From an uncultured Acidobacteriota bacterium (GTDB lineage: Bacteria > Acidobacteriota > Thermoanaerobaculia > Multivoradales > SZUA-115), in assembly GCA_963805975.1 (NCBI GenBank), contig CAWDVR010000002.1:1088001-1152000 (forward strand): a stretch of DNA of 64,000 nt. The letters are read 5' to 3'. How positions within the stretch are numbered: position 1 is the stretch's first letter; every line of letters begins with the position of its first letter. A program made the position numbers and the translations under genes. Below, in pieces: positions 15,010-64,000 of this stretch. Below the pieces are notes generated by a model. It saw only the letters and a list, made by a program, of their open reading frames with translations, had not been told where the DNA came from and did not search any database.

Positions 15010-15127
15010 AGAGGCTACACAGCTCGCCGTCGGGTTGATCTCCGCGCCAGGAAGCGCACGAGCGTGGCGCGACTTAGAGGCATGATGCGCGTCCGATGAC
15101 CGGACCGCCCTCAAAGGGAGAGATGAA

Positions 15128-15762: not shown

Positions 15763-15819
15763 TTGCACTAGAACCCCAGATCCGCTAGCCTCGGCGAGTC
15801 TTGTGACGCTTGTCACAAG
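15763..15819 (+). promoter_or_regulatory. Promoter of the ACIII-caa3 operon with a Rex/CRP-type palindrome
   Basis: TTGCAC-17 bp-TAGCCT (15763-15791) followed by the perfect palindrome CTTGTGAC-GCTT-GTCACAAG (15800-15819). Confidence 0.65.
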
Positions 15820-15911
15820 CGCCTTGTGGGAGAGCTGGGGGCTACGTTATCCTCTCGCCGGTTCCCACAGGCCGGCAGGCCCATAGAATCTCTAGCCGAG
15901 GCCCCTTGACG

Positions 15912-16562
15912 ATGGCCCAGGTATTCCATCGCAGCACGAACACGATCGCCAAGGCGACGATCTATGGCGGTGTGGTTTTTGCGGCCTTCGCGGGCTGGCT
16001 GCTCCTGGCCCTGGCGCGCTCCCCTTACGTCACCCGCCAGGGGGTGGTGCGGCAGCAGCCGGTGCCCTTCAGCCACGACCACCATACGGCCGGCCTCGGC
16101 ATCGACTGCCGCTACTGCCACACCTCGGTCGAGGACTCGTCCTTCGCCGGCCTCCCCCCCACGCAGACCTGCATCGGCTGCCACAAGCTGATCTGGACCA
16201 ACGCCGAGCTCCTGGAGCCGGTGCGGGCGAGCTGGCGGACCGGCGAGCCGATTGTCTGGCGGCGCATCCACGACCTGCCGGACTACGTGTACTTCGACCA
16301 TTCGATCCACGTCGCCAAGGGCGTCTCCTGCTACACCTGCCACGGGGCGGTGAACGAGATGCCGCTCATGTACCAGAAGTCTTCGCTGCTGATGGAGTGG
16401 TGCCTGGACTGTCATCGCGACCCGGCGAAGTTCGTGCGCCCCAGGGAAGAGGTGGTGAACTTTCGCTGGCGGCCCGAGGAGCCCCAGGAAGTGCTGGGGG
16501 CGCGGCTGGTCGAGGAGTACGACATCCACAGCATGACCAACTGCTCGACCTGCCACCGTTGA
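15912..16562 (+). CDS. actA: Alternative complex III pentaheme cytochrome c subunit
   Basis: N-terminal TM, QPVPFSHDHH, five CxxCH motifs, LPDYVYFDHSIH. Confidence 0.92.
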   Translation: MAQVFHRSTNTIAKATIYGGVVFAAFAGWLLLALARSPYVTRQGVVRQQPVPFSHDHHTAGLGIDCRYCHTSVEDSSFAGLPPTQTCIGCHKLIWTNAELLEPVRASWRTGEPIVWRRIHDLPDYVYFDHSIHVAKGVSCYTCHGAVNEMPLMYQKSSLLMEWCLDCHRDPAKFVRPREEVVNFRWRPEEPQEVLGARLVEEYDIHSMTNCSTCHR

Positions 16563-16600
16563 TATGTCACCGTTGAAAGAAAACTGGGTCACCGCCGAGC

Positions 16601-19710
<3,110 letters not shown>

Positions 19711-45308: not shown

Positions 45309-45402
45309 GGTAGAGCCAGAAACGGCATGCGCTGAGCATCCGCGCTCTGAACGCCAGAGGACCGTGGCCAACTCCGGCGGCGTCCCGTGGGAGGAGAACA
45401 GA

Positions 45403-46425
45403 ATGAGACCCGAATTCACGCGCGCGTTGTTAGTACTCTTGGTATCGAGCTTCGCATCTGCCAACTCATACGCCGTTTGCGACTACGGCCCAGACACCTG
45501 CCTGTTCGGATTCGTGTGGCGGGAAGCGTTCCCTGGTGATCACGTTTGCGTAACAGGCGCTACTCGCGATCAGGCAAGGAGTGACAACAACCTGGCTGAC
45601 CAGAGAAGATCGCCGACAGGCGGAGACACATGCTTACCCGGATTCGTGTGGCGGGAAGCGTCGCCTACCGATCATGTCTGCGTGCTCGGAAGCACGCGCA
45701 CGGAGGCGGCTTCAGATAATGCTCAGGCAGGCGCCCGAAGAGATCCGCAATGCGCCGATCCATCGCTAAGCGACAGTTCGGCGCCCAGTTTCATCGAGAA
45801 CACGATTACCTTTGTACGTGTCTCGGACAATCTTCAGGTCGGGTCAGAAGTCATACCGCCTGCCGGATTGACAAAATCATCAGTGGCCCGAGATCGACGA
45901 TTTGTAGTAGCAGCTTCTGCGGGCGACAACGAGAGCGGCATCGCCAGCATACGCCTGCAAGGTGGAATAGGCTGGAACTGCACACCGCGCCTCGAGGGCG
46001 TGGGCACCAATCAACAAGGGTCGCTGGGCGCGCCGTCTGATGAAGAAAAAGATAACACCAGCACACCGGGAAATCCGCTGCTGCGAAGCGCTCATTTCAC
46101 CATCGATCCTTTTGAGGGCAATCCCTTGCGCCTGGTTTGCCCATGCACCAACGATTCCGGGCCGCTCACGGTCAGCATCACGTTGGCTGCACGCAACGGG
46201 AAGGGACTGGAAACAACTTCTCCACCAATTACGGTGGAGTACTCCCCCCAATTACCGACCTGCGGTGTTGCGTCGGGTGCAATTTGTGGCAACAATGTGC
46301 TCGGCCAGGTCCTGACTTGCACAGACGGCCGGAGCTGCGACTTCAAAAGGTCTACGGTTTGCTCGGGATGGTGGATATTCAGAACCTGCGACAAAATTCA
46401 GACAACAGACATGTTCTGTCCGTAG
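45403..46425 (+). CDS. Secreted cysteine-rich protein with two DTCxxGFVWREAxPxDHVCV repeats
   Basis: RBS GAGGAG, signal peptide, 16 Cys, identical 23-bp repeat at 45507 and 45639; visibly lower GC than its neighbours. Confidence 0.8.
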   Translation: MRPEFTRALLVLLVSSFASANSYAVCDYGPDTCLFGFVWREAFPGDHVCVTGATRDQARSDNNLADQRRSPTGGDTCLPGFVWREASPTDHVCVLGSTRTEAASDNAQAGARRDPQCADPSLSDSSAPSFIENTITFVRVSDNLQVGSEVIPPAGLTKSSVARDRRFVVAASAGDNESGIASIRLQGGIGWNCTPRLEGVGTNQQGSLGAPSDEEKDNTSTPGNPLLRSAHFTIDPFEGNPLRLVCPCTNDSGPLTVSITLAARNGKGLETTSPPITVEYSPQLPTCGVASGAICGNNVLGQVLTCTDGRSCDFKRSTVCSGWWIFRTCDKIQTTDMFCP

Positions 46426-46501
46426 GTACTGCTCGAGACCGCCGCGAACGGCGGAATCGGCCGCTACAGGCGTCCTCTCAGAGTCTCCGGTCACACTCTG
46501 G

Positions 46502-46543
46502 CCCCTCTCCCCGCGTGGGCGGGGAGAGGGCTGGGGTGAGGGG
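46502..46543. repeat. Single REP-like unit (same family as 43090-43209)
   Basis: CCCCTCTCCCCGCGTGGGCGGGGAGAGGGCTGGGGTGAGGGG between convergent genes. Confidence 0.85.
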
Positions 46544-46549
46544 TCTGTC

Positions 46550-47176
46550 CTACAGGTCGGCGGCCTTGATGCTGGCCACCAACTGCTGCACCACCGGCTT
46601 CATCACCTTGTCGAACTGGCGCTCGTCGCCCTGCACACCGCCGCCGAAGCCGCCCACCGAGAGCTTGAAGGCCGTGTCCTCGCCGCGCGCCTCGTCCGCC
46701 CACAGGATCTCGCCGGTGGTGGTGTCGATGATGCGCGCGTTGGCCGCGGCGACGAAGGTCTTCTTGCCGCCCGAGAAGCCCGGCAGCCCGCGCACGCCCG
46801 GCCCGTGAGCGCCGGTCTCGGTGGCGCCGTACTCGGTGACCGCGCCGGTCAGGAAGTACTGCACGCCGATGAGCTTGCCGGCCTTGATGGCGGTCTTGGG
46901 ATCGACGTCGCCGGACAGCGAGAGGTTCTTCTCGGCCAGCAGGGCATCGAGCTGCTCGCGGTCCATGACCCGGAACTTGCCGCTCTTGACCAGCTCGGTG
47001 ACGAACACGTCCTGCATCGCAGCGGAGCCGCCGTGCCACCAGTACTGGCCATCCGCCTTGTTCTTGAACTCCAGAACGGCGATGCGGGGCTTGCCGTCGC
47101 TGGCCGCCGTGGCCAGGGGGACGACCGCCAGCGCGACCAGCGCGGCAACGATCAGCAGGGAAAGCACCTTCTTCAT
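46550..47176 (-). CDS. CsgG/HfaB-family exported protein
   Basis: MKKVLSLL signal, KPRIAVLEF, LVKSGKFRVMDREQLDALLAE, RIIDTTTGEILW. Confidence 0.85.
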   Translation of the reverse strand: MKKVLSLLIVAALVALAVVPLATAASDGKPRIAVLEFKNKADGQYWWHGGSAAMQDVFVTELVKSGKFRVMDREQLDALLAEKNLSLSGDVDPKTAIKAGKLIGVQYFLTGAVTEYGATETGAHGPGVRGLPGFSGGKKTFVAAANARIIDTTTGEILWADEARGEDTAFKLSVGGFGGGVQGDERQFDKVMKPVVQQLVASIKAADL

Positions 47177-47398
47177 GGCTTGAAACCTCCTGTTGGCACC
47201 CATCATGGGGTGTTCGTACTGTGCTCGGAAAGCGCGCGCTCGGCGCCGTCCCGGCTCTTCGTCGAATCGCTCATGGAACGCGCTACAGCTTACTCCAACT
47301 CCTGGCCGGCCGCGAGACAGCCGGCTCAACGCGACCGGCATTTGCGATAGCCTCTCGCGGTCCGCCGCCCGACTCCGACCGCGAACCCGAGCGCCCTC

Positions 47399-48187
47399 AT
47401 GCCAGCCGCCCGCACCTACAGCAACTACCTCAAGCTCGACGAGCTCCTCGTCCTCCAGCAGCCCCTGTCCGACGGGCCGGAGCACGACGAGATGCTCTTC
47501 ATCGTCATCCACCAGGTCTACGAGCTGTGGTTCAAGCAGGTTCTCTGGGAGCTCGACTGGCTGCGCCAGGCCCTGCTCGAGAATCGCGCCCCCCGTGCTC
47601 TCGCCACCTTCAAGCGCATCCTCACCATCATGAAGACGCTGGTGGCGCAGATCGACGTCCTCGAAACCATGACCCCGGTCTCCTTCGGGTCCTTCCGTGC
47701 CCGGCTCGACGCCGCGAGCGGCTTCCAATCCCGGCAGTTCCGCGAGATCGAGTGGGTGCTCGGCACACGCCGGTCGGCCCGTCTCGCGAGCTTTCCGGAG
47801 GGTGAAGAAGACCGCCGCCGTCTCGAGGCCCGCCTCGCCGAGCCCTCGCTCTACGACACTTTCCTCCGCTTCCTGGCCGCCAACGGCGAGCCCGTACCGG
47901 CCGAGGCCTTCGGGCGCGAGCCCGCCGCGCCGCCTTTCGAGGACGAGCGCGTGCGCCGGATCCTGATCGGCATCTACCGCGAGAACCCCGCCCTGCGCGA
48001 GGTCTGCGAGCGCATGGTGGACCTCGACGAGGGCCTCCAGGAGTGGCGCTACCGGCATATCAAGATGGTGCAGCGCACGATCGGTACCAAGCGGGGCACC
48101 GGCGGCTCGCCCGGGGCCGAGTATCTGAAGACCACGCTCTTCGACCCTCTCTTCCCGGACCTCTGGACCATGCGGGCCGACCTCTGA
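47399..48187 (+). CDS. kynA: Tryptophan 2,3-dioxygenase
   Basis: YSNYLKLDELL, HDEMLFIVIHQVYELWFK, SGFQS.QFR, WRYRH, GTGGS. Confidence 0.95.
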   Translation: MPAARTYSNYLKLDELLVLQQPLSDGPEHDEMLFIVIHQVYELWFKQVLWELDWLRQALLENRAPRALATFKRILTIMKTLVAQIDVLETMTPVSFGSFRARLDAASGFQSRQFREIEWVLGTRRSARLASFPEGEEDRRRLEARLAEPSLYDTFLRFLAANGEPVPAEAFGREPAAPPFEDERVRRILIGIYRENPALREVCERMVDLDEGLQEWRYRHIKMVQRTIGTKRGTGGSPGAEYLKTTLFDPLFPDLWTMRADL

Positions 48188-48265
48188 GCGGCTCCGGCAA
48201 ACCCATCTCTCCCAGCAACCTATCCGCTCTTTCCCGCTTCGCGGGGCCAGGGCTCTGAGATCATC

Positions 48266-49462
48266 GTGCATCCTCGGGACCTCGCATCTACGCCCAACCC
48301 GCTCGCCCCGCACTACTCGCGCTTCCGGGTCGGGGAACGGCTGCTCCTCACCGGGCACTCCCACCAGGCTTGGCCGGACCTGGCCCTCGAGGGCCAGGTG
48401 GAGGCCTTCCACGATGCCGCGGAGCGGGTGGACGAGAAGTGGGAGCGCGCCTTCGCCAAGGCGGCGCGGTTGAAGCGGGGCATCGCCCGCTTTCTGGACG
48501 ACGACGCAGGCACCTATGCGCTGGGCGCGAGCACGCACGATCTCGTGGTGCGGTTCCTCTCGGCCCTGCCGCTCGCCCGCCGGCCGCGGTTGGTGACCAC
48601 GGACGGCGAGTTTCACACCTTGCGGCGCCAGCTCGCGCGGCTGGCCGAGGAAGGTGTCGAGGTGGTCCGCGTGGCCGCCGAGCCGGCCGAGAGCGTCGCT
48701 TCACGGCTGATCGCGGCGCTGGACGAGCGGACCGCGGCGGTGCTCGCCTCGTCGGTCTTCTTCGGCAGCGGGCGGATCGCCCTGGGCCTGGGCGAGGTGC
48801 TGGCAGCCTGCCGGCGCGCCGGGGCCGAGCTGCTGGTCGACGCCTACCACTCGCTGGGGGTCGTACCGCTGTCGGTCCCCGGCGAGGAGCTGGACGGCGC
48901 CTTCCTCCTAGGCGGCGGCTACAAGTACCTGCAGATGGGTGAGGGCAACTGCTTCCTGCGGGTGCCGCCGGGCCGGGACCTGCGCCCGGTGGTGACCGGC
49001 TGGTTCGCCGAGTTCGAGGCCCTGGCCCAGGGCCATGACCCGAACGAGGTGGCCTACGGCGCCGGCGCCGCCGCCTTCGCCGGCGCCACCTACGATCCCA
49101 CCAGCCACTACCGGGCCGCCGCGGTGCTCGACTTCTGGGACGAGCACGGTCTCAAGCCCGGCCTGCTCCGCGCCGTGAGCCAGCGCCAGGTGGGTCTCCT
49201 CGCCGAGCGCTTCGACGCCCTCGACCTGCCGCCCGCGCTCGTCACCCGCGACCGCGTGCCCATCTCGTACCTCGGCGGCTTCCTCGCCCTCACCTCGCCG
49301 CGCGCCGGCGAGCTCTCGGCCGCGCTCTCGGACCGCGGCGTGATGACCGACTTCCGCGCCAACGTCCTCCGCCTCGGCCCCGCGCCCTACCTCTCCGACG
49401 CGCAGCTCGAGGACGCGATGGCGCGCCTCGGCGAGGCCGCGCGAAGCCTCGCCGACCGCTAG
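48266..49462 (+). CDS. kynU: Kynureninase (PLP-dependent)
   Basis: LLTGHSHQ, DAYHSLG, GGYKYL PLP lysine, TGWFA; follows kynA. Confidence 0.85.
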   Translation: MHPRDLASTPNPLAPHYSRFRVGERLLLTGHSHQAWPDLALEGQVEAFHDAAERVDEKWERAFAKAARLKRGIARFLDDDAGTYALGASTHDLVVRFLSALPLARRPRLVTTDGEFHTLRRQLARLAEEGVEVVRVAAEPAESVASRLIAALDERTAAVLASSVFFGSGRIALGLGEVLAACRRAGAELLVDAYHSLGVVPLSVPGEELDGAFLLGGGYKYLQMGEGNCFLRVPPGRDLRPVVTGWFAEFEALAQGHDPNEVAYGAGAAAFAGATYDPTSHYRAAAVLDFWDEHGLKPGLLRAVSQRQVGLLAERFDALDLPPALVTRDRVPISYLGGFLALTSPRAGELSAALSDRGVMTDFRANVLRLGPAPYLSDAQLEDAMARLGEAARSLADR

Positions 49463-49473
49463 AATCCCTCGTC

Positions 49474-51063
<1,590 letters not shown>

Positions 51064-51069
51064 GCACCC

Positions 51070-52599
51070 TCAGGGATCGATCTTTTCTCGCCACGCGGCC
51101 GGCAGCCTGCTGATGGGCAGGATGTAGCCGAGCTGGGAGTAGACCTCGGCGTCCTCCACCGTGGCGGACGGTACGCCGATCAGGCGATAAGCGCCGTCGA
51201 GCGCCGCGCCGCCCGAGTTGCCGGAGCCGATCTCGGCATCGGTCTTCAGCACCACGCCGGCCTCGGTGGTGTCGAAGCCGCTGATCACGCCTCGGGTCAG
51301 GGTCACCGACACGCGGCTGCCGAGCCCCCCGGCGCCGGGGAACCCCAGCACGGTCACCGGATCACCGATCGCCACCGCCTCGGAGCTGCCGCGTTCGAGG
51401 AACGGGAACCGGTAGCCGGCCGGCAGCTCCTGGCCGTAGAGACCGCTCTCGATCTTCACCAGCGCGAGGTCCAGCGCGCGGTCGGCCAGCACCACGCTGC
51501 CACGGAACAGCTCCGCCGGCGGCATCCTGGCGTCGAGGCACAGGCTCACCACCAGCTCTCCACTACCCGCCGGGTTGCCGGTGTCGTCCACCACCACGTG
51601 GAAATTGGTCAGCACCCAGCCGTCCGGAGAGACCAGCGTACCGCTGCCGCTGCCGCTCTGGGTCAGGATCTCGACCGTCGACAGGAGCGCGCGATCGATG
51701 CCCGCGGCCGGCTGGCGCAGCGTGGGGATCGAGAGCAGCTCTGCCGCCGGCTGTGCCGCGAAGCTGGCGTGGGCGGTGAAGCGGGCGAGGTCGAGCTGGA
51801 AGGGGTCGAAGACGCTCACGTACCAGGTGCCGGGGGCGAGCGGCGGGTCGCTCGCCTCGTCGATCAGCAGCGTCTCCCGGCCGAGCAGGCTGTCCGCCAC
51901 ATGGTCGGCATCCTCCGGGTTCAGCACCGCCTGGCCGCGCCGGGCCACCATGTCGAGGTCGCTCGTCACCTGGTCGAGATCGATGCGCAGCGCCGCGGCG
52001 CCCCGCGGCACGTCCACCGTGAAGGTGCGGAACCAGCCGCTGTCGGCGGAAGTCTCCATCGCCCGCGGCTCGCCGGGCACCAGGCGGCCGTCCACGCGGG
52101 AGCGGATCACGGAGGCGGTGATGGTGAATGGGATCTCGTTCACCCGTCGCTTGCGGATCCGCGGCTCCGCCTCCACCGTGTAGGCGACGTCCACGTAGTA
52201 GGTGCCGGGCACGAGCGGCGGCTCGCCGGAGCGCAGGATGGTGAGCGTGTCGTTGTAGAGCCGGGTCGAGGCCTCGTACTCGGCGTCCTCGTCGTAGTTG
52301 GCGAGCGGGCGGTCCCGGCGCGCGAAGAGGTCGAGGTCGACCGGCGCGTCCTCGATCTCGAGGGTCAGCATCATGGCGTCGCCGGGCACCTCGACGATGA
52401 AGCTCTGCCAGAGCTGATCTTCCCAGTCGATGACCGCCGCCTTCGGCCGCCCCAGCTCCAACCGCGTGGCGCTTTCTTCGGCGTCCTCGGCCACGGGCTC
52501 CTGAGCCAAGAGCGGCGTGCCAAGGCCCGCGAGCGCCGTGAGGATCCCCAGCCAGGCCAACAGCGGACCGCCCGCGCAACGCCAAGGGCTCGATTTCAC
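51070..52599 (-). CDS. Exported trypsin-like serine protease with two N-terminal PPC-like domains
   Basis: Signal peptide; repeated DLDL/DLDM...PPL.PGT(Y/W)YV domains; triad LTNFHV, DLAL, GNSGG; GTG start inferred. Confidence 0.85.
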
Positions 52600-52619
52600 G
52601 CGACGAGTCTCCTGCCAAC

Positions 52620-52650
52620 AAAAAAGCGAGCCGCAAATGCGACTCGCTTT
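52620..52650 (-). terminator. Rho-independent terminator downstream of tRNA-Met
   Basis: Stem-loop AAAGCGAG.CGCA-AA-TGCG.CTCGCTTT with a U-tract on the minus strand. Confidence 0.8.
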
Positions 52651-52657
52651 GACTTGA

Positions 52658-52738
<81 letters not shown>

Positions 52739-52773
52739 TCACAAGGAGCGTCGCCGCTCCTCGAAGAACGGGA

Positions 52774-52802
52774 AGTATCCCAAAACTTGCCGGCGCTGTC
52801 AA
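52774..52802 (-). promoter_or_regulatory. Sigma70 promoter of tRNA-fMet
   Basis: Minus strand TTGACA-17 bp-GATACT. Confidence 0.75.
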
Positions 52803-52864
52803 AGTCCGGGCAGGGCCTGCGCGCCGCGGGCTCCGTCGAGGTGGCTGTACAATTCGCCGACAGG

Positions 52865-53497
52865 ATGCCTCCCCTGCCGCCCAACCAGAAGCGCGAGGAA
52901 GAAGCACAAAAGATCCTGGCGGCGCTGCGGGAGGGCTCGCTCAGCTTGGACCTCGCTTTCGATCGCCTCTTTCGCTCGCACTACGCCGCCGTCCGTTGGC
53001 TCTTCCGCCAGTGGCTTACCAGCCCGGAGGATCGTGAGGAGCTAACCCAGGAGACTTTTCTCCGCATCTATCTGAGCATCGAGGCGTTTCGCGGAGATTG
53101 CAGCTTCAGCACGTACCTCTTCAAGCTCGCCAAGAACGTGTTCCTCGGGCACCGGCGGAGCAAGCTCGCCGAGAAACGCAGCGGCATCGAGGTTTCTCTC
53201 ACGGGGAGCCCGGAGACCGGGGAGGAGCCGAGCACGGAGCCGCTCCCTCCCGTGCCGCCGGAGCAAGAGGATGCTGTGCTCCGAACGGAGCAGGAGAAAA
53301 AGTTGCTCGAGGTAGTGGGACAGATGCCGGATCAAAGACGCAAGTGCCTGATTTTGAAGTACTACCAGGATCGCAGCGTGCAGGAGATCGCGGCGCTGCT
53401 CCACCTCGCCGAGGGCACGGTGAAGGCGCACTTGCACCAGGGGCGAGAGCAGCTCCGAACACTTCTGGGGGCGGACGCGCTGACGGAACGGACCTAG
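52865..53497 (+). CDS. ECF RNA polymerase sigma factor
   Basis: Region 2 EELTQETFLRIY...FRGDCSFSTYLFKLAKN; region 4 QEIAALLHLAEGTVKAHLHQGR. Confidence 0.93.
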   Translation: MPPLPPNQKREEEAQKILAALREGSLSLDLAFDRLFRSHYAAVRWLFRQWLTSPEDREELTQETFLRIYLSIEAFRGDCSFSTYLFKLAKNVFLGHRRSKLAEKRSGIEVSLTGSPETGEEPSTEPLPPVPPEQEDAVLRTEQEKKLLEVVGQMPDQRRKCLILKYYQDRSVQEIAALLHLAEGTVKAHLHQGREQLRTLLGADALTERT

Positions 53498-53535
53498 ACC
53501 TTCGGGGGCGGGGGTTTCAGGAAAGCAGGTGGAAG

Positions 53536-54321
53536 ATGGCTCAGACACTGAAGATCAAGACCCTGCTCGAGGGCCTGGCTCGCGAGCAGGGCGAGCCGGC
53601 GGCCGGCCATCCCAGCGACGAGGAGCTCGTCGAGTACGAGGCCGGCGAGCTGGACCCGGAGGACTACCGGCGCGTTCAGGACCACTTGGTGGCCTGCGAG
53701 CCGTGCGCCCGTCTGGTGCTCGAGATCTCGCTCCTCGAGCCCAAAGCGCTCGACGGCGAAGACCCGGTTTCCGAGCACGAGCTGGCGCAGTCGCTGCGCA
53801 GGATGCGAACCCGGCTCCCGGCGCAGCCGCCGCTCCGGGTGGTGGCGCAGCCGGTCAGGCCGGGCGGGACCCCCAACTGGTACAGAGCCGTGGCGGCAGG
53901 CCTTTCGGTGGCCGTGCTCGGGCTCGCGGGCTGGGTGGGGCTGCTGCTCTCCCACCGCGGCGGCCCGGAGATCAACGCCTACGTCTGGAACCTGAACGAC
54001 ACCGGCACGCGGGGAGGCTTCGAAGAGGCCGATCTCGTGGAGGTGCCGGCCGGCAGCAACGCCGTGACGCTGTTGCTCTACGCCTCGAAGCTCGGCGAGC
54101 AGGGCACGCCGGAGTACGACGGCTTTCGCGTCGAGATCGCCGGCGCCGGCCGTACCTGGAGCCGCGACGGCCTGCTGGTGGTGGGTTCGGGCTCGTTCTC
54201 CCTCACTCTGCCGAAGGACGATTTCCCAGCCGGCGCCTACAACGTGAGGATCCTGGGTACGCGCCAGGGCCAGCAGGAGGCGGCCCTGGCGACCTACACG
54301 ATCGATCTGCGCTACGCCTGA
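53536..54321 (+). CDS. Zinc-binding (zf-HC2/ZAS) transmembrane anti-sigma factor
   Basis: HPSDEELVEY...HLVACEPC (HxxxCxxC), one TM, beta-rich extracytoplasmic domain. Confidence 0.88.
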   Translation: MAQTLKIKTLLEGLAREQGEPAAGHPSDEELVEYEAGELDPEDYRRVQDHLVACEPCARLVLEISLLEPKALDGEDPVSEHELAQSLRRMRTRLPAQPPLRVVAQPVRPGGTPNWYRAVAAGLSVAVLGLAGWVGLLLSHRGGPEINAYVWNLNDTGTRGGFEEADLVEVPAGSNAVTLLLYASKLGEQGTPEYDGFRVEIAGAGRTWSRDGLLVVGSGSFSLTLPKDDFPAGAYNVRILGTRQGQQEAALATYTIDLRYA

Positions 54322-54338
54322 GGTAGGCTCCGGCCGAG

Positions 54339-57300
54339 ATGCCTCGGTCCTCCAGCCGAGCGGCGATCGTCTTCCTGATTACGGCTCTGCTCGCCTTTCT
54401 CGCCGGCTACGAGAGAGCTCGACTTCCACCCGCCACTCGCCAAGGCCTGCTGACCGCAACGCCGGCACCGGAACCAAGGCCCGCGGCGCGCTCCCTCCCG
54501 CTCGTCGCCGGCACCGAGATCCCGGCCATCCTGGCCGGCGGCGAGGCCCACGAGTACAGCCTTTCACTGCGAGAAGGCCAGTTCGTGGACCTCGAGGTCG
54601 AGCAGCAGGGCATCGACGTGATCCTCGAGCTCTACCAGCCCGGCGGCGACCTCGAGACCCTCGTGGACAGCCCGAACGATGCCTCGGGACCGGAGCCCCT
54701 GCTGCTGCTGGGCGAGGCGGCGGGCGAGTACCGTCTTTCGATTGCAGCAGGAAACCCGGCAGATCCATCCGGCCGATACATCCTACGTCTCCTCGCCGTG
54801 CACGAGGCCGGGGCCGACGACCGCACCCGGGTCACCGCGGAGCGCATGTTCGCCAAGGGCGAAGGGCTGCGGCGCGCAGGAACCGCCGAATCCCTGACCG
54901 AGGCGATCGATTGGGACCGGCAGGCTCTCCTTCGGTACCGCAGCCTGGAGAGTCGTTCGCGAGAGGCGGATGTTCTCGTTGCGTTGGGAAGGGTCCACTC
55001 ATTTCGCGATGACTGGCAGCAGGCACTCTCGGCATTCGAGCAGGCCCTTCCCATACTGCGAGAGGCCGGGCGAGGCGTGGACGAGGCGGCAACGCTGAAC
55101 AACATTGGCCTGGTCCTCAACAAAACAGAGCAATCCCAACGGGCGCTCGACCTTTTCAGGCAGGCAGAAGCTCTATACCGGCGGTTTGGACACCCCCACC
55201 AAGCCCGCGCCCTGAGCAACATCGGCTGGGCTCACGAGAAGCTCGGCGACCTCGAGGACGCTATTCAGGCTTACCGCGATGCCTATACACAATTTCTCAG
55301 GTTGAGCGACTCGCCTGGCGCTGGAATCTGCATGCTCAACATCGGGGATCTTTACTCCAGACAGGGTCAGACTGAGAGTGCGATCGATGCTTATGAAGAA
55401 GCTCGCGCTCGGCTCGAGAAGTCTCCGGACCGGCGATCACTTGCGCTGACCCAGACGAGGCTCGGGTACGCACGCTACCGGTCCGGCCAGGCCGAACAGG
55501 GCCGAGAGCTCCTGGAGACCGCCCTGGAGATGCAGCGACGCCTGGGTGCACGAAGAGACGAAGCGATCTCTCACAACTCTCTGGCTCTCCTCCTGAGTGA
55601 GGCAGCCGAGACCGAGCTCGCCAAGCTCCACTATCACGAGGCTGCAGCCATCGGCACGGCGCTGGGCGACGAAGCAGAGCGCGCTGTGACTCTCGCCAAC
55701 CTGGGGCATCTCGAGCTCGAGAGCGGCTCCGACGAAGCGGCCGAGGGCACATTCCGAGAGGCGCTGGCGACTTTTGCCCGGGTCGATTCACCCCTGGGCG
55801 AGGCCACCGCTCTCTTTGGGCTGGGGACGCTTCTCGCTCAGCAAGGCAAGCTGAGCGAGGCCGCATCGGTGCTCGAGCGGTGTACTCGCAGAGTCGAGGA
55901 CGTGCGCAACGCGACGGCGAGCTCGGATCTGCGAAGGTCATTCCTGGCGCTCCAGCAGCCAACCTACGGGTTGTACATCGAAACCCTCATGAGGCTCCAC
56001 GCGGCAGATGTGGACGCCGGGTTTGACCTGATGGCCTTCGAGGTCGCCCAACGTGTACGAGCGCGTGGCCTGCTCGACGACCTGCTGGCGTCCCCTGCGG
56101 CGCTGCGGAGAGACGGCCCCCACCCTCTGGTCGAGGAAGAAGCAGCCCTCAGCCAAGCAATCAACAGAACAGCAGAGGAACGTCAGCCCCTGCTCGCCAT
56201 CCCTCGATCTCGACAGAAGGTCGACGACCTCGGCAAAGTACTGAGAGGGCAGCTCGCGGCTGCTGATCATCTGGAAGCAAGGATGCGGAGAAGCAGCACG
56301 GCCTTCCGCGAAACCATCTCGGCACCGGCTCAGACACTCGAAACGATCCAGCAACAGCTTCTCGGCGCGGAAACCATCCTCTTGGAGTACGCTCTCGGCA
56401 ACAACGAGAGCTACCTGTGGGCAGTGACTGACAGCTCGTTGTCGAGCTTCCGGCTGCCGCCGCGCCGAGAGCTCGAGGCGCAGGCAGCGGCACTGTACCG
56501 CGCGCTCTCGCTCGGGCCGCAGCCACTCGCTTCGGGTCAGACCGAGGCCTTGCTGAAAAAACTTTCAGAGACTCTCCTGGGGCCGGTGGCAGAGCTCGTT
56601 GGTGATCGGCGGATTCTGGTAATTCCCGATGGGGACCTTGCACTGCTCCCGTTTGCCGCCCTCCCCAGACCGAGCACAGCCGCCAAGGCTCATCAGAAAG
56701 CGGACTCGGAGCCGATCGCCACCGGGCACGAGGTGACGATACTGCCGTCCGCGTCGTCCCTCGCCTTCTTGCGGCGCAGATCTCGGGCGCGCTCCTCCGC
56801 CCCGGGGCTCCTGGCAGCGATCGGAGATGCGGTTTCCAACCCCGGAGACCTGCGGTTTCCCAGGCGACCTCCCGTCCCCCCCGGCTCACAGCTCATCCAG
56901 TTCCCGCGGTTGCCTTATGCACGAGCAGAGATGGAGCGAATTCTATCTCTCGCGGGTGAGGAGCCGAAGCTCGCGGCGTCAGGATTCGAAGCCAGCAGAA
57001 GCACGCTCATGACCGAGGTCCTGTCCAGATATCGAATCGTTCACTTCGCCACTCACGGTGTCTTTGACCCCGAGTTCCCCGAGCTGTCGGCGATCGTACT
57101 GTCGACCTTCGATGCCAGCGGATCTCCCCGAGATGGTCTGGTTCGAGCCCATGAGCTGCGACGGATGAATTTCAACGCAGAGCTAGTCGTGGTCTCCGCC
57201 TGCGAGACCGCACGCGGGAAGACGGTGCGCGGAGAAGGAGTTGTGGGTCTGGCTCGCAGCCTGCTCTCCGCCGGGGCCCAACAAGCAATGGTCAGCCTCT

Positions 57301-57527
57301 GGGAGGTCGACGACCAGGCGACGGCAAACTTGATGGAAGAGTTCTACCGCGGCTTGCTGGTCGAGCGCCGTAGCGCTGCTGCAGCGCTGCTGGAAGCGCA
57401 GGCAGCCGTCGCCCGCCAGGAGCGGTGGCACTCTCCGTACTTCTGGGCCGGATTCCTATTGATTGGCGACGGGAGTGGTCTCGGCGCTAAACCGCACATT
57501 CCCCCGTCGCATCTGAGACGGAATTAG
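54339..57527 (+). CDS. Exported PPC-like/TPR/CHAT (caspase-HetF) protease
   Basis: N-terminal hydrophobic segment, EQQGIDV PPC-like domain, many TPRs, LLEY, IPDGDL..LPF, HFATHG, VSACETARG, SLWEVDD, PYFWAGF. Confidence 0.92.
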   Translation: MPRSSSRAAIVFLITALLAFLAGYERARLPPATRQGLLTATPAPEPRPAARSLPLVAGTEIPAILAGGEAHEYSLSLREGQFVDLEVEQQGIDVILELYQPGGDLETLVDSPNDASGPEPLLLLGEAAGEYRLSIAAGNPADPSGRYILRLLAVHEAGADDRTRVTAERMFAKGEGLRRAGTAESLTEAIDWDRQALLRYRSLESRSREADVLVALGRVHSFRDDWQQALSAFEQALPILREAGRGVDEAATLNNIGLVLNKTEQSQRALDLFRQAEALYRRFGHPHQARALSNIGWAHEKLGDLEDAIQAYRDAYTQFLRLSDSPGAGICMLNIGDLYSRQGQTESAIDAYEEARARLEKSPDRRSLALTQTRLGYARYRSGQAEQGRELLETALEMQRRLGARRDEAISHNSLALLLSEAAETELAKLHYHEAAAIGTALGDEAERAVTLANLGHLELESGSDEAAEGTFREALATFARVDSPLGEATALFGLGTLLAQQGKLSEAASVLERCTRRVEDVRNATASSDLRRSFLALQQPTYGLYIETLMRLHAADVDAGFDLMAFEVAQRVRARGLLDDLLASPAALRRDGPHPLVEEEAALSQAINRTAEERQPLLAIPRSRQKVDDLGKVLRGQLAAADHLEARMRRSSTAFRETISAPAQTLETIQQQLLGAETILLEYALGNNESYLWAVTDSSLSSFRLPPRRELEAQAAALYRALSLGPQPLASGQTEALLKKLSETLLGPVAELVGDRRILVIPDGDLALLPFAALPRPSTAAKAHQKADSEPIATGHEVTILPSASSLAFLRRRSRARSSAPGLLAAIGDAVSNPGDLRFPRRPPVPPGSQLIQFPRLPYARAEMERILSLAGEEPKLAASGFEASRSTLMTEVLSRYRIVHFATHGVFDPEFPELSAIVLSTFDASGSPRDGLVRAHELRRMNFNAELVVVSACETARGKTVRGEGVVGLARSLLSAGAQQAMVSLWEVDDQATANLMEEFYRGLLVERRSAAAALLEAQAAVARQERWHSPYFWAGFLLIGDGSGLGAKPHIPPSHLRRN

Positions 57528-57562
57528 CACCATCTATTCCTTCTGCTCGCAAAGGAGAGGCG

Positions 57563-57814
57563 ATGAGAACCAGTTCGCATCCGAAAGAAACTGATCAGGG
57601 GACGGCGGAGAAATCTACCAGCGTGACCAGGGTGGACCCGGGCTTTCCTATCGAGCAGGGAGCTGGGGGCCAGGGGTCGGGTGGCGGCACTCCGGCCAAG
57701 CCACCCAATCAATCGGACGGCGAACCCGGTTCGGTCAGCCCCAAGAAGCGCGTCCGAAAGATCAGGCGAGGAGCGGTCCCGAAGAAGGCCAGCCCGACCC
57801 GAAGATCGGCATAA
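57563..57814 (+). CDS. Small low-complexity protein (Gly-rich centre, basic tail)
   Basis: Strong RBS AAGGAGAGG just before the ATG; co-oriented inside the cassette; no recognisable domain. Confidence 0.55.
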   Translation: MRTSSHPKETDQGTAEKSTSVTRVDPGFPIEQGAGGQGSGGGTPAKPPNQSDGEPGSVSPKKRVRKIRRGAVPKKASPTRRSA

Positions 57815-57907
57815 CGTCGGACACCGCTTCCAAGGCTCGCGGCGCGGTCCGGCGGTCGTTTACCCGGCGCCCGCGCCGCCATTGCCATATCCTATGCCGC
57901 CAAGGCC

Positions 57908-59393
57908 ATGACAGATCCTTGCTCGGTGTTCAACGGCATTCATGCCACGACGGGCCGCACCTTGTATCCGGCGCATCCGGTGAGGAGCCTGATTCACCTC
58001 GCAGAGCGGGAGAGGGGCTCGCCGATGCAGACCGGCCCTCTTGCCCCTCCTCGGGCTCGCGCGTCCTCGTGCGCAGGGGCTCCCCGCGGCCCTGCTCTCC
58101 GACTGCGACTTCAGGGACCCGGCCGAGGCCGGCTGGGGGGTGATCTTTTCCGCCCAGGCCGATCCCAAGGTTCGAGCGGCCCTCGCTCCATTGCTCGACC
58201 ATCGCAAGGAACAGGTGACGCGTTCCAACGAGCGCCGATACCACGAGTTCTCGGGTGAGCTGGGCTACCAGAAGGGCGATACCAAAGCCAGGTTCCTCCA
58301 TCGCCAGTGCGTGGGGCCCGGCGAGTTCGACGCCCTGCGCGTGCCCTACTACCTGCTCCTGGTGGGCGGACCGGAAGAGATCTCTTTCGGTTTTCAGGAC
58401 AAGCTCGATCCCCGGTACGCCGTCGGCCGGCTCTGTTTCGATCGGGTGGAGGACTACGCGCGCTACGCGGCCCACGTGGTCGCCACCGAGCAGGCGGCGA
58501 AGCTGCGCCCGTTACGCGCCACGGTCTTCGGGGTCGCCAACGCGGACGACCGCGCCATGGAGCTGACGTGCGAGTACCTGGCCAAGAGGGTCGCCACCAA
58601 TCTCGCAGCCAAGGCCCAGGGCTTTGCAGTCGAGAAGGTGCTCGGGGTGGCCGCCACCAAGGACCGCCTGCGGCGCCTGCTGGGCGGCGATCAGACTCCC
58701 GACCTGCTCTTCACCACCTGCCACGGAATGGGTTTCGACGCCGGTGATCCGCGCCAGGAGATCGAGCAGGGCGGCCTCGTTTGCGCGGACTGGCCCGGTC
58801 CCTTGGCCTGGCAGAAGCCGCTCGACGCCAGGCACTACTTCACGGCGCGAGACGTGGGCGACGAGGCCCGCCTGGGTGGCTTGATCACCTTCCACTTCGC
58901 CTGCCACAGCGCCGGCACCCCGGATCACGACGCCTACGGCGAGCGCACGAACCAGAATCCCCGCCGCCTGGCGACCCGGCCCATGGTCGCCGGCTTGTGC
59001 AAGCGTCTTCTCGCTCACCCCGGCGGCGGCGCGCTGGCGGTGGTCGGCCACGTCGAGCGAACCTGGGGATACTCCTTCCTGTGGCAGGGCATCGGGCCGA
59101 CTACGCAGGCCTTCGAGCGGACTCTCGAGAGCCTGCTCGCCGGCAACCCGGTCGGTTTCGCCATGGAGCCCTTCGCGGCCCGTGCTCACGACCTCGGCGA
59201 GGATCTGCGCGAGGAGGGAGACCCGGAGCGGGCGGCCATGCTGTGGACCGCGCTCCAGGACGCCCACAACTACATCATCCTGGGCGATCCGGCGGTGCGC
59301 CTGCCGGCACCGAAGCCGCCTCGGCTCCGGCCGCCCCCGGGGCCGTCGTCGCCGCTCTCGCGCCGGAAGCTCCAGTTCGGAGAAGCCGGTTGA
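57908..59393 (+). CDS. Clan CD cysteine peptidase (C25 gingipain-like), apparent +1 frameshift near 58040-58100
   Basis: N-terminal VFNGIHATTG in one frame; GWGVIF, VPYYLLLVG, AVGRL, FTTCHG, FACHSAG, VGHVER and ILGDPAVRL in the next. Confidence 0.75.
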
Positions 59394-59400
59394 CGACTGG

Positions 59401-60798
59401 CTACTGCAGATAGCCCAGCGCCCGCAGCCGGTCCTCCGCCTCCTTGCCCAGCAGCAGGCTCTTCTCCGAGGCCGCCGAGCCTTCGATCCTCACCAGCCGC
59501 TCGTAGAGCGCTCTCTGGAGACGCTCGAGCTCTGCGGGATGCCGAGCAGACAAGTCTTCGAGCTCGCCGGGGTCCGCGGCGAGGTCGAACAGGGCGAAGG
59601 TGCGGCGCGCCATGTCGTAGAGCAGCTTCGAGCGCCCGTCGGTGACGCTCCGCCACTCGCCCTGCGAGCTGAAAGCGAGCCGCGGAGCGTCCTCACCGGG
59701 CGGGGCCTGGGAGCCGAGCCAGGGACGCAGGCTCTCGCCCGCGGGCGCCCAACCGCCCGACGCGCGGGCATCGAGCCCCGCCAGGTCGAGCAGCGTGGGT
59801 GCAAGATCGAGGTTCGAGACGGCCCCCTGCACGCGCCTGCCGGCCGCGCCGTGTGGAGTCCGGATCAGCAACGGCGTCCGGACCTGGGTGTCGAACGGCG
59901 CATGGCAGTGCTTCACATCGCCATGCTCGAGGAAGGCCTCGCCATGGTCGGACGCCAGGACGAGGACCGTGCCGCCCGCCGACCGGGAGCTCTCGAGCGC
60001 CGCCAGCAGGCGCGGCAGCTCGCTGTCGAAGTAGGCGATCTCCTCGTCGTAGAGGTCGACCAGGTGCTGTAGCTGGTCGGCGCTCACCGGCGACGGCTGG
60101 CCGTGCTTGTAGAGGGCGTCGGCGATCGGGTTGGGGTCGCCGGCGAGCACGAAATCCGGCGCCTCGATGGGCAGCGCCCAGCGCCTGGGGTGCCGCTCCG
60201 GAGGCCGGTAGGGCCCGTGGGGCTCCATGAAGTGGAGGTAGAGGAAGTAGGGCGGCCCGAGGCCGGGCAACAGCGCTTCGAGGCGGCCGTTCACGCAGTC
60301 GGCCGACTGCCACAGGCACTGCTCGTCGAAGATCTCGAAGCCGCGGTCGAACCCCCCAGCCGGGTTGAAGCGGGTGGGAGACTTGCGCACCACGGGGCTC
60401 GCGGACACGGCGGCGGTCGTGTAGCCCGCGTCACGAAGCACCTCCGCCAGCGACGGAACGGTCTCCGGGATGCCCAACCGCCCACCCTCCTGCCCCAGGA
60501 ACACCAGGGGATCGCGTGAGGTGAGGAGGGAGTTGACGGAAGGAAACGTGCAGCTCGCCTGGGCGCGCGCCTGCTCGAAGAGCACCGCCTGCCGGGCGAG
60601 CGCATCGAAGTTCGGGCTGGTCTCTCGAGCGTAGCCGTAGGCGCTCAGGTGATCGGCGCGCAGCGTGTCGACCACCACCAGCACCAGGTTGGGCTTGGGC
60701 GCGGGAGAGGCGGGAGAAGGTGAGGGCGGCTCCCCGCCGCAACCCATCCAGGCGGCACCGGCGAGCCACCAGGAGAGCGAGCGCGCGAAACGCCGCAT
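59401..60798 (-). CDS. Sulfatase/alkaline-phosphatase-superfamily lipoprotein
   Basis: PNLVLVVVDTLRADHL, CTFPS, HFMEPHGPY, YDEEI, ASDHGE, LRALGY. Confidence 0.88.
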   Translation of the reverse strand: MRRFARSLSWWLAGAAWMGCGGEPPSPSPASPAPKPNLVLVVVDTLRADHLSAYGYARETSPNFDALARQAVLFEQARAQASCTFPSVNSLLTSRDPLVFLGQEGGRLGIPETVPSLAEVLRDAGYTTAAVSASPVVRKSPTRFNPAGGFDRGFEIFDEQCLWQSADCVNGRLEALLPGLGPPYFLYLHFMEPHGPYRPPERHPRRWALPIEAPDFVLAGDPNPIADALYKHGQPSPVSADQLQHLVDLYDEEIAYFDSELPRLLAALESSRSAGGTVLVLASDHGEAFLEHGDVKHCHAPFDTQVRTPLLIRTPHGAAGRRVQGAVSNLDLAPTLLDLAGLDARASGGWAPAGESLRPWLGSQAPPGEDAPRLAFSSQGEWRSVTDGRSKLLYDMARRTFALFDLAADPGELEDLSARHPAELERLQRALYERLVRIEGSAASEKSLLLGKEAEDRLRALGYLQ

Positions 60799-60815
60799 CT
60801 CCTACCCGCCTCTCT

Positions 60816-61439
60816 CTACCCAGGGAGATGGACGAGAAGCTCGCGCCGCAGCAGGTCGGAGAGCTCGGCCAGGAGCTCGGGCCGCGGCGCGCCCTTCGCC
60901 GCCTCGACGATCAGGACATGCGGCATCTCGGGCGAGTCGCCGTAGGTCTCGTGGCGCTCGAGGCCGCGGAAGAAGTCGTGTTGGCTCTCGCCGTAGCGGC
61001 ACCAGGCGAGGTCCCTGAACCCGCAGGCCTCGAGGGCCCGGGCCAGCATCTCGCGGTTCCACACGAACTGGTGCCCCCAGGCACGGAAGGCGCGGTTCAT
61101 GCGGATCGCCATCTGCCGCTTCTCGTCCGGGTCGGCCTCCAGCCGGTAGTGCGTGAGCCACACCCAGTCGAGGTTCGGGGTCGAGAGGCGGATCCAGCCG
61201 CCGTCCGCGAGCACGCGGTGGGACTCGAGCAGGAAGGCGAGCGCCTTGTCCACCTCCAGGTGCTCGAGGAAGTGCTCGGCGAAGACCGCCTCGACGTTCT
61301 TGAACTTGAGGCCCCGGGTGACGTCGGCCACCACGTCCACGCCCGGCAGACGCTTCAGATCGACGTTGACCCAACCCTCGAGCCGCTTGTCCCCGGCCCC
61401 CACGTGGAGCTTCACCGGCTTGCCGCTGAACCAGCTCAT
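60816..61439 (-). CDS. Class I SAM-dependent methyltransferase-like protein
   Basis: KLHVGAG, GWVNVD, HFLEHL, HRVLADGG..RLSTP. Confidence 0.82.
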   Translation of the reverse strand: MSWFSGKPVKLHVGAGDKRLEGWVNVDLKRLPGVDVVADVTRGLKFKNVEAVFAEHFLEHLEVDKALAFLLESHRVLADGGWIRLSTPNLDWVWLTHYRLEADPDEKRQMAIRMNRAFRAWGHQFVWNREMLARALEACGFRDLAWCRYGESQHDFFRGLERHETYGDSPEMPHVLIVEAAKGAPRPELLAELSDLLRRELLVHLPG

Positions 61440-61447
61440 GGCCGGCA

Positions 61448-61476
61448 ACGATCCCCGTTCAAACCATAGATGTCAA
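61448..61476 (-). promoter_or_regulatory. Sigma70 promoter, probably leaderless
   Basis: Minus strand TTGACA-17 bp-GATCGT, 8 nt before the ATG. Confidence 0.6.
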
Positions 61477-61509
61477 GCCGGGCTCGTGGTCGTGATGTGC
61501 TCGGGCTCA

Positions 61510-61605
61510 CAGCCGGATGGATTCCCGCTTGCGCGGGAATGACCGCGACGAGAGCAGAGGCATCATAGGCTGTCGTTCCCGCGCAAGCGGGAATCCATCC
61601 GGCTG
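61510..61605. repeat. 34-bp inverted repeat made of REP-like ATTCCC-N-GGGAAT palindromes
   Basis: CAGCCGGATGGATTCCCGCTTGCGCGGGAATGAC ... GTCGTTCCCGCGCAAGCGGGAATCCATCCGGCTG (1 mismatch). Confidence 0.88.
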
Positions 61606-61633
61606 CCCTCGCAGAAGGTCCATCGCCCTCTAA

Positions 61634-62986
<1,353 letters not shown>

Positions 62987-62996
62987 GAGACCGGCA

Positions 62997-63374
62997 ATGC
63001 AGGCCAGTACCATCGCCGATCCGCGGCCCTTCCGGTCCCTCCTGACGGTGGCCGTGGCCGCTCTGCTCCTGCTGCTCGTCGCCTTCGGCGCCAAGGGCTA
63101 CCAGGACCTCAAGAGCGCGCAGGCGCGGGAGCTCGAGCTCGAAGCCCGCATCGCCGAAAAAGAGGCGCGGATCGCCGAGCTCGAGCAGCGGGTCCACCGG
63201 CTGGGGGGCGACCCCGCGACCCTCGAGCGGCTGGCCCGCGAGGAGCTGTGGATGGCGCGGCCTGCCGACGTGGTGATCGTGCTGCCTCCCGAGCCCGGCG
63301 ATGCGCCCCCTCTCGCGACCCGCGCGCTCCGCCGCTCGGCCCCCGCGAGCCTACCGGCCCGTCCCAGCCTCTGA
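62997..63374 (+). CDS. ftsB: Septum formation initiator (FtsB/DivIC)
   Basis: Single TM, coiled coil, LERLAREELWMARP; classic position after eno. Confidence 0.85.
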   Translation: MQASTIADPRPFRSLLTVAVAALLLLLVAFGAKGYQDLKSAQARELELEARIAEKEARIAELEQRVHRLGGDPATLERLAREELWMARPADVVIVLPPEPGDAPPLATRALRRSAPASLPARPSL

Positions 63375-63456
63375 GCTCCAGCGGCCGGCCGAGACTGAGC
63401 CCGGCCGCTGCCTTCGCAGGCCGCATTTCCTTTCTACAAAAATACAGGCAACGCTC

Positions 63457-63485
63457 TTGACACTCTGGCAGTGGTGCTATATACA
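63457..63485 (+). promoter_or_regulatory. Sigma70 promoter in the ftsB-moaA intergenic region
   Basis: TTGACA-17 bp-TATACA preceded by an A/T-rich UP-like tract. Confidence 0.6.
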
Positions 63486-63829
63486 GATATTGAAAAGCGA
63501 CATTCCCGCTGGCGGCCCGTTACCAGGACGGTCGTGGCCCGGTTCCGCCGGCAAAGGCAGAGACACAGAGCACAGGCAAATGCACCATCTCAGGGACACA
63601 GCCGCTCCACCCAGCGCCGGCCTGGCCGGTGCCCCATCGTTCGCGGACCCCCTACGCGGCCTCACGGCCGCGTCACTCGGATCGGCCGGCTGCGGCGTCC
63701 AGCCGCAGGGCGGCTAGCCGAGCCCACCTGCGCTGTGGCGGGCACGTCCCACCTGCCACAGCGCACTCCCCCTCCTCACCGACGGAAAGTTCAAGCCGGC
63801 GGCAAAAGGCCGCGCGCTATGATCGATCG

Positions 63830-64000
63830 GTGCCGGATGTCACGGACCGCCTGCGACGGCCGCTCCACGATCTGCGGATCTCGGTCACCGACCGCTGCAA
63901 CTTCCGCTGCCCGTACTGCATGCCGCGAGAGGTCTTCGGCCCCGGATTCGAGTTCCTGCGCCGTGCCGAGCTCCTGACCTACGAAGAGATCCATCGCCTC
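63830..64000 (+). CDS. moaA: GTP 3',8-cyclase MoaA, N-terminus (truncated by window edge)
   Basis: [29 protein letters not shown]...LLTYEEI, radical-SAM CxxxCxxC motif. Confidence 0.93.

Follow-up and report, generated by a model that had tools for sequence, protein, structure and literature searches.

The stretch analysed here (the window, 64,000 nucleotides; positions 1,088,001 to 1,152,000 of contig CAWDVR010000002.1, GenBank assembly GCA_963805975.1) comes from an uncultured Acidobacteriota soil bacterium whose genome assembly comprises 6 contigs with a total of 5.36 Mb and 70% GC. At 52865-59393 it carries five genes, for a sigma factor of the extracytoplasmic function (ECF) type, a zinc-binding anti-sigma (ZAS) factor, a protease with tetratricopeptide repeats (TPR) and a CHAT domain, a small peptide and a C25 (gingipain)-like peptidase. 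We consider it probable that this locus is a two-protein switch of the DdvS-DdvA type, in which the exported TPR-CHAT protein would act as site-1 protease on the neighbouring anti-sigma factor and thereby release the sigma factor for defence cargo. In Myxococcus xanthus, DdvA is a single ZAS-transmembrane (TM)-TPR-CHAT fusion, proposed to cleave itself ahead of RseP (PMC11506125; PMC6061681). The ddv operon encodes DdvS, DdvA, an unknown protein and a putative peptidase of the C25 type and belongs to an island of cyclic oligonucleotide-based anti-phage signalling (CBASS) and CRISPR genes (PMC11506125). An initial sequence-only reading of the window had proposed a new kind of system; this was not borne out, since an operon of ddvS, ddvA, an unknown gene and a C25 gene is already published (PMC11506125). 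The gene set is real, conserved and coherent, and its design has a published precedent. Our case is built on the parts, their linkage, a conserved Arg loop in the anti-sigma factor, the positions of a promoter-like motif and the cargo of related loci, all read directly from sequence. The features are as follows.

52865-53497, plus strand: ECF sigma factor, 210 aa (Pfam Sigma70_r2 4e-13, r4_2 1e-15, ECF; NCBIfam TIGR02937)
53041-53071, plus strand: predicted ECF promoter P1, within the sigma gene (TAACC-n16-GCATCT; matrix score 23.1)
53536-54321, plus strand: ZAS anti-sigma factor, 261 aa (Pfam zf-HC2; AlphaFold2; Foldseek; alignment)
54010-54012, plus strand: Arg159 codon in the TGTR/GG loop of the anti-sigma factor, candidate site-1 cut (conservation in homologs)
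54339-57527, plus strand: TPR-CHAT protease, 1062 aa (Pfam CHAT E 2e-67; alignment; AlphaFold2; Foldseek)
54930-57875, no strand assigned: exchanged cassette of lower GC with TPR, CHAT and small open reading frame (ORF) (relative's contig; GC content at third codon positions, GC3)
57486-57516, plus strand: predicted ECF promoter P2, at the CHAT 3' end and ahead of the small ORF (TAAAC-n16-GCATCT; score 9.9)
57563-57814, plus strand: small ORF, 83 aa (ATG with Shine-Dalgarno sequence; no family)
57908-59393, plus strand: clan CD peptidase resembling C25/gingipain, frameshifted (+1) near 58039-58043 (PF01364; homologs; relatives' contigs)
52662-52738, minus strand: tRNA-Met(CAT) (ARAGORN), divergent neighbour, context only

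All five genes are co-oriented, with intergenic gaps of 38, 17, 35 and 93 bp. This agrees with the initial reading, which had given gaps below 100 bp and a divergent tRNA gene, identified by ARAGORN as tRNA-Met(CAT) on the minus strand.

The protease consists of an N-terminal hydrophobic helix, a beta-sandwich, a TPR array and the CHAT domain. Its AlphaFold2 (AF2) model has a predicted local distance difference test score of 88.8 and places the beta-sandwich at about residues 60-156. A PPC-like domain had been claimed; Pfam gave no match for it at E<=0.1, and the AF2 model shows the beta-sandwich. The export or anchor segment stands as a hydrophobic helix, seen by eye and in the hydropathy of homologs; export itself is a prediction. 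The His-Cys dyad was read correctly. His906 (57054) and Cys955 (57201) are invariant in all 22 aligned partner CHAT proteins; Asp992, the Asp of an SLWxVxD motif, is also present and is kept in 28 of 33 CHATs. In Foldseek the CHAT model matched separase best, and both DdvA (ranked 7th) and Csx29 were matched as well. Structurally, the TPR part is nearest to the peptide-binding repeats of LGN/Pins. Separase cleaves after Arg by means of an invariant Asp (PMC10317155; PMC4626109).

The anti-sigma factor was confirmed as the predicted protein with an HxxxCxxC motif, one TM segment and an external domain. The zinc motif is H50-C54-C57, and the AF2 model shows a helical cytoplasmic domain, one helix at 115-140 and a beta-sandwich ectodomain of about 120 aa with Ig-like matches in Foldseek. 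Between the first ectodomain strand and the remainder lies a loop of variable length, modelled with low confidence, which contains Arg159. To judge its conservation, 78 homologs were aligned and 8 were removed for identity above 60%. Arg159 was kept in 68 of the remaining 70 and replaced by Lys in none, making it the most conserved residue of the ectodomain; in 64 of the 68 the following residue is small (G, S, A or D). A check independent of alignment found an Arg-small pair inside the loop window in 67/70 proteins as opposed to 33% of control windows. A separate Arg-Gly control, made with the non-CHAT anti-sigma factors of the genome, is not clean: 10 of 16 contain an Arg-small pair by chance. 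Arg159 in the TGTR/GG loop is our candidate for the site-1 cut, and a near-invariant Arg-Gly loop predicted to lie outside the cytoplasm is compatible with such a cut. As a separate observation, the zinc-binding residues H50, C54 and C57 are replaced by L, Y and L, respectively, in about one third of the 78 homologs, which nevertheless retain the Arg loop. A suspected likeness of the ectodomain to DUF928 was dropped, as 17 members gave no Pfam match at E<=5.

Linkage was analysed by searching with the anti-sigma factor only, which avoids the bias of picking loci by C25. Matches were obtained in 70 of 301 genomes of the class, and 60 were analysed; these were chosen by hand, mostly near full length and mostly new relative to the loci fetched earlier. 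An adjacent TPR-CHAT gene of 948-1400 aa was present in 54 of the 60, so that the linkage of sigma, zf-HC2 and CHAT genes proposed as a test is conserved. It lies downstream and co-oriented as in the window in 22 of these loci, divergent in 30, upstream in one and convergent in one. In all mapped loci the anti-sigma and TPR-CHAT genes are separate. The window's genome has 20 CHAT genes, and a CHAT domain is encoded no more than 4 kb away from 11 of its 36 listed ECF-like genes. C25 was found in just 6 of the 60 loci. The core thus consists of sigma factor, anti-sigma factor and TPR-CHAT protease, and C25 is cargo.

The same data bear on a different role of the protease, namely that of a shield or co-sensor. 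It would bind the ectodomain, with Arg159 as anchor, and block RseP until a ligand removes it; the first cut would be made by another protease, or there would be none. In DdvA the TPR-CHAT domain does block RseP and no autoproteolysis was seen (PMC11506125), and both linkage and conserved Arg suit binding as well as cutting. The invariance of His906 and Cys955 in 22/22 partners argues for an enzyme, and an Arg in a variable-length loop, never exchanged for Lys and followed by a small residue, is the pattern typical of cut sites. We take the shield as the leading competitor, albeit an unlikely one.

The positions of a promoter-like motif suggest how a cleavage-driven switch may be wired. Many co-oriented loci carry, past CHAT, an ORF of 45-97 aa with ATG start, Shine-Dalgarno sequence, P/G/D-rich composition and no signal sequence, with or without a following C25 gene. 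We picked 27 of these by eye from 62 scanned CHAT loci and added that of the window. The motif TAA(A/C)C-n15/16-Gxx(T/A)CT is present upstream of 15 of these 28 ORFs, compared with a mean of 0.07 and a maximum of 2 after shuffling, the pattern having been derived from the same 28 regions. A matrix was trained on 14 intergenic sites, none of them from the window. With this matrix, P1 is the third-best site of the genome, and two of the top three sites, one being that at 53041, fall inside sigma genes of the module family. P1 overlies the sigma codons for L-T-Q-E-T-F-L-R-I-Y. The protein sequence dictates part of the motif there and leaves the CTA/TTA codon free; the rare Leu codon CTA or TTA is used in 19 of the 32 sigma genes having L-T at this place, against a genome background of 1.4%. 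In held-out loci, a site scoring at least 9.5 lies just past CHAT in 9 of 18 co-oriented cases (3.2 with wrong spacers) and in 1 of the other 32. Genome-wide there are 5 sites scoring at least 21, compared with 0-1 for wrong spacers, and no excess at 15 or below, for which reason a genome-wide regulon could not be fixed. Strong sites beyond the module are found on contig C3 at 72620 (+), 427851 (-) and 303646 (+) and may mark further targets; the first precedes a response regulator-like gene and the second a gene for a secreted-looking protein of 507 aa. We infer that the neighbouring sigma factor may read this motif. If so, P1 would raise anti-sigma factor and protease without raising the sigma factor, and P2 would drive the peptide and the cargo.

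Taken together, the proposed switch would work in five steps. At rest, the ZAS domain would keep the sigma factor at the membrane. A protein or peptide ligand would then bind the fast-evolving periplasmic TPR array and align the His-Cys dyad. CHAT would cleave after Arg159 and shed the Ig-like domain. An RseP-type protease would cut the TM segment and free the sigma factor; one such site-2 protease is encoded in the genome (PF02163, C4:162154-163380, E 1e-64), and RseP degrades DdvA that lacks TPR-CHAT (PMC11506125). Finally, the sigma factor would fire P1 within its own gene, giving more anti-sigma factor and CHAT and no extra sigma factor, by which the switch could be reset, and would drive from P2 the small peptide and the following cargo, here one cytoplasmic C25-like peptidase.

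The ligand is considered next. The 83-aa peptide is disordered and rich in P, G, S and K, and has neither a signal peptide nor a Pfam family. A 7.7-kb contig of a relative matches both flanks at about 95% (52713-54929 and 57876-59600); between them it has about 2960 different letters, with only a 39-base piece alike. Another sequencing run contains the window's own allele of the cassette, in pieces. GC3 is 0.68-0.71 across the cassette compared with 0.87-0.90 in the anti-sigma and C25 genes. By these comparisons, TPR-CHAT and peptide are a swapped cassette of lower GC. Relative to a locus of the same genus, the TPR part has 32% identity, compared with 60% for the sigma factor, 52% for the anti-sigma factor and 72-74% for C25. 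Given the exchange and the low TPR identity, peptide and TPR-CHAT may be paired in specificity. The peptide is probably the partner of its own TPR-CHAT, as ligand or as feedback inhibitor; this is the weakest step of the scheme. A weak shared motif, [FY][PDE][PIVT], occurs in 11/28 peptides (3.5 when shuffled), from patterns picked post hoc, and the Arg-small motif is not enriched in the 28 (19, compared with 17.7 shuffled). Nine loci (L037, L038, L039, L041, L095, L101, L117, L187, L217) contain an exported protein of about 130 aa between peptide and cargo, without match in Pfam or NCBIfam.

An extended version of the switch would be a cell-to-cell alarm. The sigma-induced peptide would stay in the cytoplasm until the infected cell lyses. 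Once released, it would bind the matching TPR-CHAT on kin, and the Arg159 cut would prime their defences (CRISPR, CBASS-type and caspase-like) before phage arrive. Receptor and peptide would be exchanged jointly, as alleles that set specificity, and a genome would contain about ten such switches in parallel. We regard this extension as speculative and rather improbable.

A further explanation assigns the receptor role to the anti-sigma factor. The substrate of CHAT would be the small peptide or a protein from outside, which it would process to a signal, and the Ig-like domain would bind the product. The joint exchange of TPR-CHAT and peptide, with the anti-sigma factor staying, and the Ig-like fold of the ectodomain are consistent with this. 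An anti-sigma factor that reads the product should, however, change with the cassette, which it did not, and the peptides have neither a signal sequence nor an enriched Arg-small motif. We judge this explanation very unlikely.

The genes that follow the module in relatives point to the role of the switch. We scanned 32 of 85 candidate ORFs. L185 has a type III-B Cmr operon and a short array, L187 has Cas6 and arrays, L184 a SAVED-CHAT protein with Cas10 and L211 a SAVED-CHAT protein. A CHAT-SIR2 protein follows in L167, a caspase in L182 and C25 in six loci; nSTAND1-WD40 proteins are also among the relatives' cargo. Ser/Thr kinases were found in L181, L191 and L208 and secreted proteins in L163 and L178. 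Altogether, 11 of the 22 co-oriented loci have Cas, SAVED-CHAT, CHAT-SIR2, caspase or C25 genes after the module, which fits the defence role suggested earlier. In L187 (G059:C45), a variant of the motif recurs at 13571-17661 in five leader-like repeated units, located between short CRISPR arrays and each followed by an array or a gene, and once more after TPR-CHAT (6740); the five units are copies and hence not independent. The arrays on either side of the module have repeats of two types. The cargo of the window is C25 alone. The earlier claim of CRISPR independence is thus correct for the window and does not extend to the relatives, where the module precedes cmr, cas6, cas10 and arrays; the module is not strictly CRISPR-independent.

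The switch might also work as described and serve a general adaptation of envelope or surface, with the defence genes as occasional passengers. Among the cargo are kinases and secreted proteins, including subtilase and VWA proteins, divergent loci share no common cargo, and strong motif sites elsewhere in the genome stand ahead of genes for a response regulator and a secreted protein. The defence-type genes in half of the co-oriented loci, 11 of 22, and the motif in the CRISPR leader-like repeats of L187 argue against it, and we find such a general role very improbable.

The last gene was tested by homology. Its product matches PF01364 (E 7e-8, 32.5 bits with a cut-off of 23) and belongs to a large and distant subfamily with at least 3999 matches; the genome has one C25-like gene. 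The dyad claimed for it (His at 58722, Cys at 58902) is kept in 22/22 aligned homologs, and the claimed lack of a signal peptide also stands, the homologs having an N-terminus without hydrophobic stretch and no secreted gingipain architecture. A profile of 22 sequences found no match in the PDB at E<=1. What failed is the single intact ORF. Alignment with homologs places the start at ATG 57908, and the four closest homologs are continuous from an N-terminus matching this ATG into the catalytic part, which in the window sits in a different frame. Both relatives' sequencing runs that span the spot, from two studies, have one base fewer at 58039 or 58043. Two of the 20 CHAT genes of the genome are likewise split across frames (C3:12746-13559, C6:55536-56355), which suggests indel errors in the assembly. 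An assembly error is the likeliest cause; the alternative is a strain-specific lesion. A locus of the same genus (L031, G001:C57, 5292-8311), whose flanks resemble those of the window, has two intact tandem C25 genes (479 and 509 aa).

C25 had initially been seen as an amplifier, substrate or effector, and it might be an integral amplifier of the path or its second-step protease, as 14 of 20 C25-picked loci of related genomes contain sigma factor, anti-sigma factor and TPR-CHAT and a C25 gene likewise belongs to the ddv operon of M. xanthus (PMC11506125); the 6/60 anti-sigma-picked loci, the 0 of 63 C25 loci named outside Acidobacteriota with this sigma or anti-sigma factor and the single C25 gene beside about 11 sigma-CHAT modules make this the least probable explanation. 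Of these 63 loci, 26 have some CHAT gene, and C25 neighbours outside the phylum include cytoplasmic CHAT, nSTAND1-WD40, CHAT-nSTAND1 fusions and caspases. In the loci L054-L130, many from Chloroflexota and Cyanobacteria, an unnamed domain of some 110 aa is frequently part of the C25 protein, as a fusion, and genes of 260 and 110 aa without Pfam match come next. These sets adjoin nSTAND1-WD40 and cytoplasmic CHAT genes and are possibly an undescribed conflict system.

Several observations weigh against the switch that we favour, in which CHAT cuts the anti-sigma factor. The conserved Arg could instead be a binding residue. For DdvA, no self-cleavage was observed when phage infected the cells, and mutating the dyad gave no phenotype (PMC11506125). 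The CHATs of Craspase cleave after Met or Leu (PMC11506125), hence Arg specificity is not general among CHATs. Two of the six CHAT-less loci, L161 and L189, are genuine with full flanks (the other four are at contig ends), and the roughly 30 divergent loci are mostly one family and hence not independent. Asp992 is presumed to be the invariant Asp of separase from its motif, not by alignment. P2 is weak, as scores such as its 9.9 are common in this genome, where 115 sites reach at least 13; the strict motif is missing upstream of 13 of the 28 small ORFs, and L185 and L211 have no site of 11 or more. Across the 28 loci, no co-variation of peptide and TPR was detected (Spearman 0.05, p 0.36), and how a peptide without signal sequence meets a periplasmic CHAT lacks an explanation. 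Part of the cargo (subtilase, VWA, kinases) is not defence-like, and the window's locus is surrounded by housekeeping genes and not by a defence island.

We compared the locus with the known systems. Like DdvS-DdvA, it has an ECF sigma factor followed by a ZAS single-TM anti-sigma factor and a TPR-CHAT with His-Cys dyad, here predicted to be extracytoplasmic, and the modules of relatives resemble the ddv island in their linkage to SAVED-CHAT and type III-B genes. The two genes that follow may also correspond, their order (an unknown gene, then a C25-type peptidase) agreeing with the Fig. 1 legend of PMC11506125. The atlas clusters nearest to the window's C25 include Myxococcota-rich ones. In contrast to DdvA, the TPR-CHAT stands alone as a protein that has an anchor of its own and a beta-sandwich (anti-sigma stop at 54319-54321, new start at 54339), and the ectodomain of the anti-sigma factor is Ig-like and bears the conserved Arg loop. 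The motif TAA(A/C)C-n15/16-GxxTCT differs from the DdvS promoter GTAA-n16-CGT (PMC6061681), and the window has no CBASS/CRISPR island, such cargo lying beside the module in L184, L185, L187 and L211. Because fusion, promoter and island differ, the locus is not a member of the DdvS-DdvA system. A phmmer search against the PDB gave no sequence homology to DdvA, DdvS or Csx29, and no fused DdvA-like form was found among longer homologs (a weak test) or in nine CHAT loci of the genome. DdvA-like proteins have been reported from Myxococcota and one Comamonas only (PMC11506125).

In Craspase, a TPR-CHAT protease cuts an anti-sigma protein and frees an ECF sigma factor for defence genes (PMC10028731). 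Csx29, Csx30 and CASP-sigma share this logic and, by Foldseek, the fold; Craspase is cytoplasmic, RNA-triggered and Cas7-11-dependent, whereas the protease of the window is predicted outside the membrane and no Cas7-11 is present in the window. With DegS/RseA/RseP the locus shares a single-TM class I anti-sigma factor, an RseP homolog and a predicted two-step cutting; here each sigma factor has its own clan CD cysteine protease, encoded in the adjacent gene and predicted to be a dedicated site-1 enzyme. A sigma factor, CHAT and another protease of clan CD also occur together in the SAVED-CHAT/PCaspase defence locus of Haliangium (bioRxiv 2023.06.23.546230); there the cascade runs in the cytoplasm with cyclic oligoadenylate as its trigger, whereas the two proteases of the window are predicted on opposite sides of the membrane. 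The C25-like protein resembles gingipains in its PF01364 match above cut-off and in its His-Gly and Cys dyad, and differs in lacking a signal peptide. For the split form no publication was found within the main texts of the open literature; 'CHAT' is missing from the main text of the ECF reclassification (PMC7826278), and 'C25' and 'gingipain' from two conflict-system surveys (PMC8195603, PMC7159879).

The surroundings were inspected as well. No cas genes or arrays were found in 44000-64000 of the window, in line with the initial reading of the locus, and a simple array scan of the whole genome gave a single flag (C4 near 576 kb). PADLOC, run on four window proteins, named no system, a generic TPR model aside. 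By eye, 52780-52853 contains TTGACA-17-GATACT, a minus-strand promoter for the tRNA, and a TACAAT box lies at 52848-52853 immediately upstream of the sigma gene, suggesting that this gene is transcribed in a housekeeping manner. Beyond the tRNA, 51073-52632 (-) encodes a secreted-type protease with PPC and trypsin-like domains and no sign of module membership. A Cys-rich protein of 353 aa with a signal-like start is encoded at 45364-46425 (+), with an internal 65-nt repeat.

In summary, the design of DdvA is extended from myxobacteria to Acidobacteriota, where it has expanded and stands ahead of CRISPR and other immune cargo. The split family supplies what DdvA lacks, namely enzyme and substrate as separate proteins and one predicted scissile bond, together with a promoter that a reporter could read out and a peptide as candidate partner. 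Whether a caspase-like protease can make the site-1 cut in an ECF pathway thereby becomes a question for in vitro tests.

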